This document shows, in pieces, positions 20,761-20,858 of a DNA stretch of 64,000 bases. Within the stretch, counting starts at the first letter, position 1. Every line of letters begins with the position of its first letter. Both the position numbers and the translations under genes were made by a program. The notes under the pieces are model-generated. The model made no database searches, was not told the origin of the DNA, and saw only the letters and a program-made list of their open reading frames with translations. The DNA is taken from NCBI RefSeq assembly GCF_054482595.1, contig NZ_CM137008.1; one strand, given 5' to 3'.

Positions 20761-20858
20761 GCCGGATGCGGCGTGAACGCCTTATCCGACCTACAAAATA
20801 GCGCAAATTTAATATATTGCACCATCCTCGCAGGCCTGATAAGCATAGCGCATCAGGT
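20761..20858. repeat. REP/BIME element between convergent kdpE and pgm
   Basis: gccggatgcggcgtgaacgccttatccgacctac ... caggcctgataagcatagcgcatcagg. Confidence 0.8.

Follow-up and report, generated by a model that had tools for sequence, protein, structure and literature searches.

The window, by which we mean the whole 64,000-nt stretch of DNA analysed here, reads dtpD, phrB, an Rhs region, ybfA, kdpFABCDE (+), pgm, seqA (-), ybfF, ybfE, fldA, fur (+), chiQ, chiP, glnS and nagE (-), and a 2-kb test stretch of it (19800-21800) was 100% identical to E. coli strain XH990. Two look-alike segments of this DNA were compared. Site A (20759-20857) occupies the gap between the convergent genes kdpE and pgm, and site B (28179-28277) lies on the downstream side of glnS and the upstream side of chiP, 7420 bp from site A and in the same orientation. 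A repeat finder returned the two segments as a gapless 99-nt direct repeat with 85% identity; by direct count 84/99 positions were identical, made up of 35/36 in a Y-type REP, 23/35 in the spacer and 26/28 in an inverted Z1-type REP, and the spacing of these three parts was the same at both sites. The MAFFT alignment agreed with the repeat finder that the likeness ended at both borders of the 99-nt span. In the RefSeq record of K-12, the annotation of this region carries no REP or RIP repeat features.

A first-pass annotation, made from the letters of the window, had placed the two segments at 20761-20858 and 28181-28278, which proved correct to within 2 nt, and the strings that it quoted as common to both (acaaaa..cgcaaa..aatatattgca) were indeed found at each site. 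It had called the architecture near-identical, which is right for the REPs alone: the identity of the spacer is 66%, while the alignment outside the REP cores was gapless. When a degenerate linker pattern of 18 positions was searched for, three matches were found in the window against 0.00 expected from 100 shuffles. Together with the profile scores reported below (E=3e-33 for site A and 3e-41 for site B), this result puts the similarity of the two sites well past chance, and it is real.

Parts of sites A and B and of a third copy

The consensus of an IHF site is WATCAANNNNTTR. The REPs were typed as Y, Z1 or Z2 against consensus sequences that we take to be those of Bachellier et al. 1999. 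At site A, the Y-type REP (20759-20794, + strand, TTGCCGGATGCGGCGTGAACGCCTTATCCGACCTAC) formed a hairpin in the RNA fold and scored 37.5 bits, below threshold, with the Rfam model naRNA4; its 3′ arm carries a G to A change and reads CCGACC where CCGGCC is usual. It is followed by a 35-nt L linker (20795-20829, + strand, AAAATAGCGCAAATTTAATATATTGCACCATCCTC), which scored 29.3 bits (E=0.012), under the gathering score, with Rfam ES036, and whose IHF-type core at 20807-20819 (ATTTAATATATTG) agrees at the level of sequence with 7/9 specified positions of the consensus, a core C having been replaced by T. The inverted Z1-type REP (20830-20859, + strand, GCAGGCCTGATAAGCATAGCGCATCAGGTA) has GCAG in place of the conserved GTAG, and 12 nt of the outer motif behind it are missing relative to K-12. 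A hairpin at 20869-20901 (AAAAAAGGGCGATCTTGCGACCGCCCTTTTTTT) then serves, according to the RNA fold, as an intrinsic terminator shared two ways by kdpE (+) and pgm (-); a simple terminator scan missed it because of a bulge in the stem. The site A element thus sits between the kdpE stop codon (TAG, 20748-20750) and this terminator, and the order on the kdpE transcript is stop codon, 10 nt, Y hairpin, linker, Z1 hairpin and shared kdpE/pgm terminator.

The three substitutions (GCAG, the G to A in the Y stem and the C to T in the IHF-type core), the lack of a left flank and a right flank shorter by 12 nt all point to site A as a decaying, truncated copy, of which the 99-nt likeness to site B would be the remnant. 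It was also observed that the core at 20807-20819 reads TTAA in genomes of the XH990 type and TCAA in the orthologues of GF43, 118UI and K-12. Judged from these letters, TTAA may be a lineage-specific weakening of the IHF-type site, and site A may have lost whatever function intact copies have.

At site B, the Y-type REP (28179-28214, + strand, TTGCCGGATGCGGCGTGAACGCCTTATCCGGCCTAC) scored 40.1 bits with naRNA4, again below threshold, and the 35-nt L linker (28215-28249, + strand, AAAAGCACGCAAACTCAATATATTGCAGAGATCAT) scored 28.9 bits (E=0.016) with ES036; the IHF-type core within it (28227-28239, ACTCAATATATTG) agrees with 8/9 specified positions. The inverted Z1-type REP (28250-28279, + strand, GTAGGCCTGATAAGCGTAGCGCATCAGGCA) runs into the start of an outer motif, ATTTAGCGTTTG, at 28280-28291. 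On the other side, the flank at 28154-28178 (+ strand, GCGTTTGGGATTGTTTGCATGTCTC) is weakly like the left outer motif of the family described below, and owing to this likeness the profile alignment for the site begins at 28170. The same flank is repeated at 28285-28309, directly before an extra, solitary Y-type REP (28310-28345, + strand, TTGCCGGATGCGACGTAAACGCCCCATCCGGCATAG) that has the orientation of the site B Y REP and lies 131 nt downstream of it; the repetition of flank plus Y REP amounts to 80% over 60 nt (28154-28345). The intrinsic terminator of glnS was located at 28137-28159 on the - strand (AAACGCCGCGGTCTGCGGCGTTT, then a T run), so that the glnS transcript reads stop codon, 16 nt, extra Y REP, Z1, L, Y and glnS terminator, the 16 nt being the distance from the stop codon to the stem of the extra Y REP. 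The Y-L-Z1 span of site B is base-for-base identical in K-12, in whose chromosome (NC_000913.3) the glnS-chiP linker lies at about 707.85-707.95 kb and the pgm-ybfP linker at about 715.26-715.37 kb. The full glnS-chiP arrangement was found in only 2456/5426 genomes, and in strain LR-28 (L004 19330-19480) a single REP replaces the 131-bp unit that is bounded by the two direct copies of flank plus Y.

A third element with an L linker, absent from the first-pass annotation, was found on the - strand at 2709-2821, in the convergent gap between dtpD and phrB. It consists of a Y REP (2821-2783), a 35-nt linker (2782-2748, AAATTTTTGCAAATTCAATAAATTGCAGGAAATAC) with an IHF-type core at 2770-2758 (ATTCAATAAATTG, 8/9 specified positions), and a 36-nt REP of the Z2 type (2747-2709), whose stem lies 15 nt from the dtpD stop codon (2696-2710). 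Since a Z2-type REP stands where Z1 is expected, we classed it as an atypical or chimeric BIME; by the types of its REPs it is a Y-L-Z2 chimera. Its linker corresponds to Rfam ES036/CssrF at 2740-2782 (-), with a score of 73.4 bits, over the gathering score.

Membership of the BIME-1 family

To sample the wider family, metagenome contigs were scanned with a pattern anchored on the REP ends only (ATCCGGCCTAC, 25-45 free bases, GTAGGCCTGATAAG), and at least 121 matches were obtained. Of those listed, 106 had linkers of 34-36 nt, and the matches listed included 69 distinct linkers and 43 distinct flank contexts. The IHF-type core TCAANNNNTTG was present in 48 of the 59 distinct 34-36-nt linkers among the matches listed. 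A consensus drawn from the 36 distinct 35-nt linkers, likewise among the matches listed, was AAAATCGTGCAAATTCAATATATTGCAGGAACCAT, and its centre, ATTCAATATATTG, agrees with 8/9 specified positions of the IHF consensus. Site A matched this linker consensus at 27/35 positions, and site B and the third copy at 28/35 each. A profile HMM was also built from 39 independent loci; it scored 135.6 bits (E=3e-41) for site B, 109.5 bits (E=3e-33) for site A and 102.4 bits (E=5e-31) for the third copy, and elsewhere in the window it met solitary REPs only. Across 5425 E. coli genomes, the linker consensus occurred at a median of at least 30 places per genome, and 1685 records reached at least 40.

Over 39 contexts, the sequences outside the REPs were also found to be conserved, with approximately CAGATTGTTGACAAAGTGCGCTTTGTTCA before the Y REP on the left and approximately AATTTTGCGTTTGTCATCAGTCTCAA after the Z1 REP on the right; by eye, the two are rough inverted repeats of each other. 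We take them to be the ‘A’ and ‘B’ motifs of Gilson et al. 1991. Given this conservation, the full unit would measure about 155 nt (about 100 nt without the outer flanks), which is larger than the span given in the first-pass annotation. The K-12 copy beside pgm has both outer motifs, site B has them in weak or partial form, and site A lacks the left one and has a right one shorter by 12 nt.

A BIME-1 is described as a single unit of one z1 and one y REP around a long, well-conserved L linker that often holds an IHF site (PMC3333891). The elements in the window follow this description closely. Each of sites A and B has a Y REP of 36 nt ending in CCTAC and a short inverted Z1 REP of the form GTAG/GCAG GCCTGATAAGC.TAGCGCATCAGG, and each is one Y-L-Z1 unit with no repeated L or Z1, hence no tandem array. 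The element is multi-copy and dispersed, with three copies within 64 kb, and all three sit at the 3′ ends of genes, i.e., between kdpE and pgm (site A), from the glnS stop codon to the glnS terminator (site B), and between dtpD and phrB (third copy). Both segments are therefore almost certainly copies of the E. coli BIME-1 (RIB/RIP), a dispersed composite repeat of a Y REP, a conserved L linker of about 35 nt and an inverted Z1 REP, and no observation contradicts this. The name RIB (reiterative ihf BIME) reportedly goes back to Boccard and Prentki in 1993, and RIP is said to come from Oppenheim et al. in 1993. The earlier proposal that the two sites are copies of one composite BIME type rather than independent palindromes is upheld, since the type is a published family and nearly all Y-(34-36 nt)-Z pairs sampled contained the same linker of about 35 nt. 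Sites A and B are ordinary members of a long-known family, described since 1991-1993, whose IHF binding, 3′-end location and variability among strains are textbook E. coli material. For annotation, the three segments should be labelled BIME-1-type repeats and not new regulatory features.

Two other origins of the similarity were weighed against common membership of a family. REPs are abundant and inverted pairs of them are common, so two unrelated pairs might have met at a similar spacing, with spacers that look alike by chance or through AT-rich composition. Against this, the spacers are identical at 23/35 positions without a gap, the 18-position pattern occurs three times in the window where the shuffles predict none, and by REP-anchored sampling dozens of unrelated loci proved to have the same linker; the shuffles, the sampling and the profile HMM led us to reject chance similarity, which keeps a negligible probability. 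The opposite possibility is that A and B form a pair of their own, made by a recent segmental duplication or by gene conversion between gaps 7.4 kb apart, as their proximity, common orientation and gapless 85% identity might suggest. However, the mean pairwise identity of the 36 distinct 35-nt linkers among the matches listed is 23.3/35 (median 25), so that the 23/35 of A and B is simply the family mean, and linkers from other loci reach 31/35 against that of B. Moreover, where genomes had no copy at glnS-chiP, the site B query found its best match in a BIME-1 at another locus, with 89-92% identity over 115-125 nt, which exceeds the 85% over 99 nt of site A. The likeness of A and B also stops at the borders of the element, and the K-12 orthologue of site A is identical to it at 31/35 linker positions, indicating that A and B have long belonged to separate lineages. 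The two sites are thus not specially related, and with linker identity at the family mean and closer relatives at other loci, a special A-B duplication was rejected as hardly credible. Membership of the BIME-1 family remains the reading that we adopt.

Compared with known systems, site B shows no difference from BIME-1/RIB/RIP, and both sites share with that family the single unit of one Y and one inverse Z1, the linker of about 35 nt with an IHF-type core, the extragenic position at 3′ ends and the dozens of copies per genome. Site A differs only in being degraded (the C to T in the IHF core, GCAG, the lost left outer motif and the right one shorter by 12 nt), and the third copy in having a Z2-type REP in place of Z1. 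BIME-2 elements, which are tandem Y-S-Z2 units and gyrase targets, belong to the same REP superfamily, but they have a short, variable S linker of about 10 nt, Z2 and no IHF site, whereas at A and B the linker is the long L and the second REP is Z1; a Y-S-Z2 unit does adjoin kdpE in a related haplotype (L005, L133). A further analogue is the REPIN, a hairpin-forming REP doublet mobilised by RAYT (TnpA-REP), in which two inverted REPs and the sequence between them are likewise the repeated unit; such doublets have been called ‘analogous to E. coli BIME-1’ (PMC2817692). The differences in presence and absence among strains and the mutually inverted outer motifs, which give a miniature inverted-repeat look, add to this likeness. 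The REPs of A and B are, in contrast, of two types (Y and Z1) and not identical arms. No RAYT gene was found within the 64-kb window, and the presence/absence differences at A and B are explained equally well by REP-REP recombination and by RAYT transposition.

Arrangements of the kdpE-pgm interval

The interval between kdpE and pgm, at 20751-20868 in the window, was found in at least four arrangements among 5426 E. coli genomes. The arrangement of the window (type a) is kdpE-Y-L-Z1-pgm and was present in 48/5426 genomes. Type b (246/5426) reads kdpE, Y, short linker, Z2, ybfP, outer motif, Y-L-Z1, pgm. In type c, that of K-12, potE is followed by a stub of outer motif plus REP, a 150-bp kdpE fragment (ybfI), ybfG, ybfP and a complete BIME-1 adjoining pgm. 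Type d, found in O157 and others (3163/5426), is kdpE-speFL-speF-potE-terminator-pgm with no REP at all. The K-12 type makes up most of the remaining genomes.

Type a is obtained from the 118UI (L133) version of type b by taking out the 647 bp, ybfP included, that lie between the two direct Y REPs of the latter. The left flank and the whole Y REP of type a are those of the kdpE-proximal copy of the 118UI type, and from the linker onward it follows the pgm-proximal copy, including the private variants of that copy (the linker start AAAATAGCGC, GCAG and the shortened right motif). As the surviving Y REP is wholly kdpE-proximal, the exchange point is confined to its last six bases, CCTACA. The joint was common to every type a genome sampled and so looks like one event. 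A deletion is the simplest account of type a, as ybfP stands beside the BIME in types b and c alike. We infer that site A is the joint of a 647-bp deletion between direct Y REPs, by which ybfP would have been removed and the left outer motif lost. A smaller loss was noted in strain UCPROB-002 (L005 3108-3175), where a 28-nt deletion between short CATC repeats has removed the Z1 REP from the pgm-proximal BIME-1.

The joint stretch CCTACA contains the sequence CC|TAC, and TnpA-REP is known to cut at this ‘iREP II’ site in vitro, the model being a single-stranded circle excised between two such sites (PMC3333891). The kdpE-BIME-pgm joint might on this ground be a natural footprint of TnpA-REP (RAYT) excision and not of ordinary homologous recombination, in which case ybfP would be an instance of a gene deleted by RAYT in vivo. 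We consider this unlikely; ordinary recombination fits the joint about as well, the last diagnostic mismatch lying six bases from the end of about 36 nt of homology. By either route, the interval offers a clean natural case of a REP-bounded deletion that is useful for the study of how REPs reshape intergenic regions.

In K-12, between potE and ybfG (L001 13722-13925), a BIME-1 left outer motif, fused to the stub of a collapsed REP (TGCCGCATCCGGCA), precedes the 150-bp fragment of the kdpE 3′ end (ybfI). This stub adjoins the potE terminator and is the only REP-like trace at that joint. The layout suggests that the K-12 arrangement is a mosaic of alleles with and without the operon.

The window lacks speFL-speF-potE, and the first-pass annotation had offered these elements as candidate recombination or insertion hotspots relevant to this missing island. 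The REPs at these loci are real recombination substrates, and to that extent the suggestion stands, the 647-bp ybfP segment and the 131-bp unit at site B both being bounded by REPs. It does not extend to speFL-speF-potE, which no BIME bounds in any arrangement, so that the element leaves the main part of the ‘island’ unexplained. It could still be argued that the site A BIME marks the point at which other strains gained the operon by insertion, as BIME-1 fills the entire kdpE-pgm gap of the operon-less window and REP-bounded insertions and deletions do happen in this interval. Yet in the O157 type the operon lies between kdpE and the pgm terminator with neither REP nor BIME at either edge, and K-12 has an intact BIME towards pgm, with ybfP, ybfG and the 150-bp kdpE fragment between it and potE, a layout that points to a mosaic recombination history and not to insertion into the BIME. 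No split BIME halves were seen at the operon edges in O157 or K-12. With operon edges free of the element in the former and the BIME intact in the latter, the BIME was rejected as the speF-potE insertion site, an origin that we hold to be very unlikely.

Transcript 3′ ends and small-RNA models

The copies are placed in 3′ untranslated regions, between the stop codon and the intrinsic terminator. At the DNA level, the L linker would act, according to the literature, as an IHF site at a core like WATCAANNNNTTR, flanked by the two REPs. Binding of IHF to the L linker of the family is attributed to Boccard and Prentki (1993) in the form in which that work is cited in PMC2817692 and PMC3333891. At the RNA level, published work would have the REP hairpins shield the upstream mRNA from 3′ exonucleases and possibly attenuate transcription or read-through. 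Both the REP-associated tyrosine transposase (TnpA-REP, RAYT) and REP-REP recombination are believed to disperse the copies and to alter them. REPs appear in a 2026 preprint as terminator and stabiliser elements whose action depends on context; it also reports that REPs between convergent genes accompany higher expression of both and that REP locations vary by strain. A REP with under 16 nt between it and the stop codon has been linked with reduced translation of the upstream gene (Liang et al., 2015, in the summary given by PMC12306157). The distance falls below this limit at kdpE (10 nt) and dtpD (15 nt) but not at glnS (16 nt). The degraded site A copy, 10 nt past the kdpE stop codon, could therefore affect kdpE expression specifically in this haplotype. 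The short distance from the kdpE stop codon to a REP was seen only in the arrangements without speF-potE.

In the RNA fold, each REP of sites A and B formed its own hairpin ahead of the terminators. The consensus fold of 39 family members favoured one long Y:Z1 hairpin over two separate ones, but, as the search pattern had held the REP ends constant, the covariation was not informative for either. Rfam holds no BIME model as such; ES036 (RF02751, CssrF) models the linker region, and naRNA4 (RF02564, CssrE, from REP325) models the Y REP hairpin plus a second hairpin. Sites A and B lie below both gathering thresholds (their linkers, at 29.3 and 28.9 bits, under 37.6 for ES036; their Y REPs, at 37-40 bits, under 59.5 for naRNA4), and only the dtpD/phrB copy passes, for ES036.

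These matches raise the question of whether the linker is primarily a small-RNA gene (ES036/CssrF), to which the REPs are mere flanks and which acts as RNA and not as an IHF site on DNA. The 73.4 bits of the third copy, above the gathering score, the matches of the A and B linkers at 29 bits with E about 0.01, and the position of every copy in a transcribed 3′ region are in favour of it. The scores of A and B nevertheless remain below 37.6, and the only inverted repeat in the linker is a 5-bp one, TGCAA/TTGCA; it is paired in about 80-90% of the 39 copies, and compensatory changes are nearly absent. A fragment lying between two REP hairpins that block exonucleases would also be expected to build up as a by-product, and published work gives the linker to IHF binding. 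We accordingly regard a primary small-RNA role as improbable and retain the reading of the linker as part of BIME-1, with a putative IHF site. Two groups of RNA genes in the window are unrelated to the BIME copies: a tRNA cluster at 38834-39551, with seven tRNA genes (Rfam) in repeated units, and sroC at 47934-48096.
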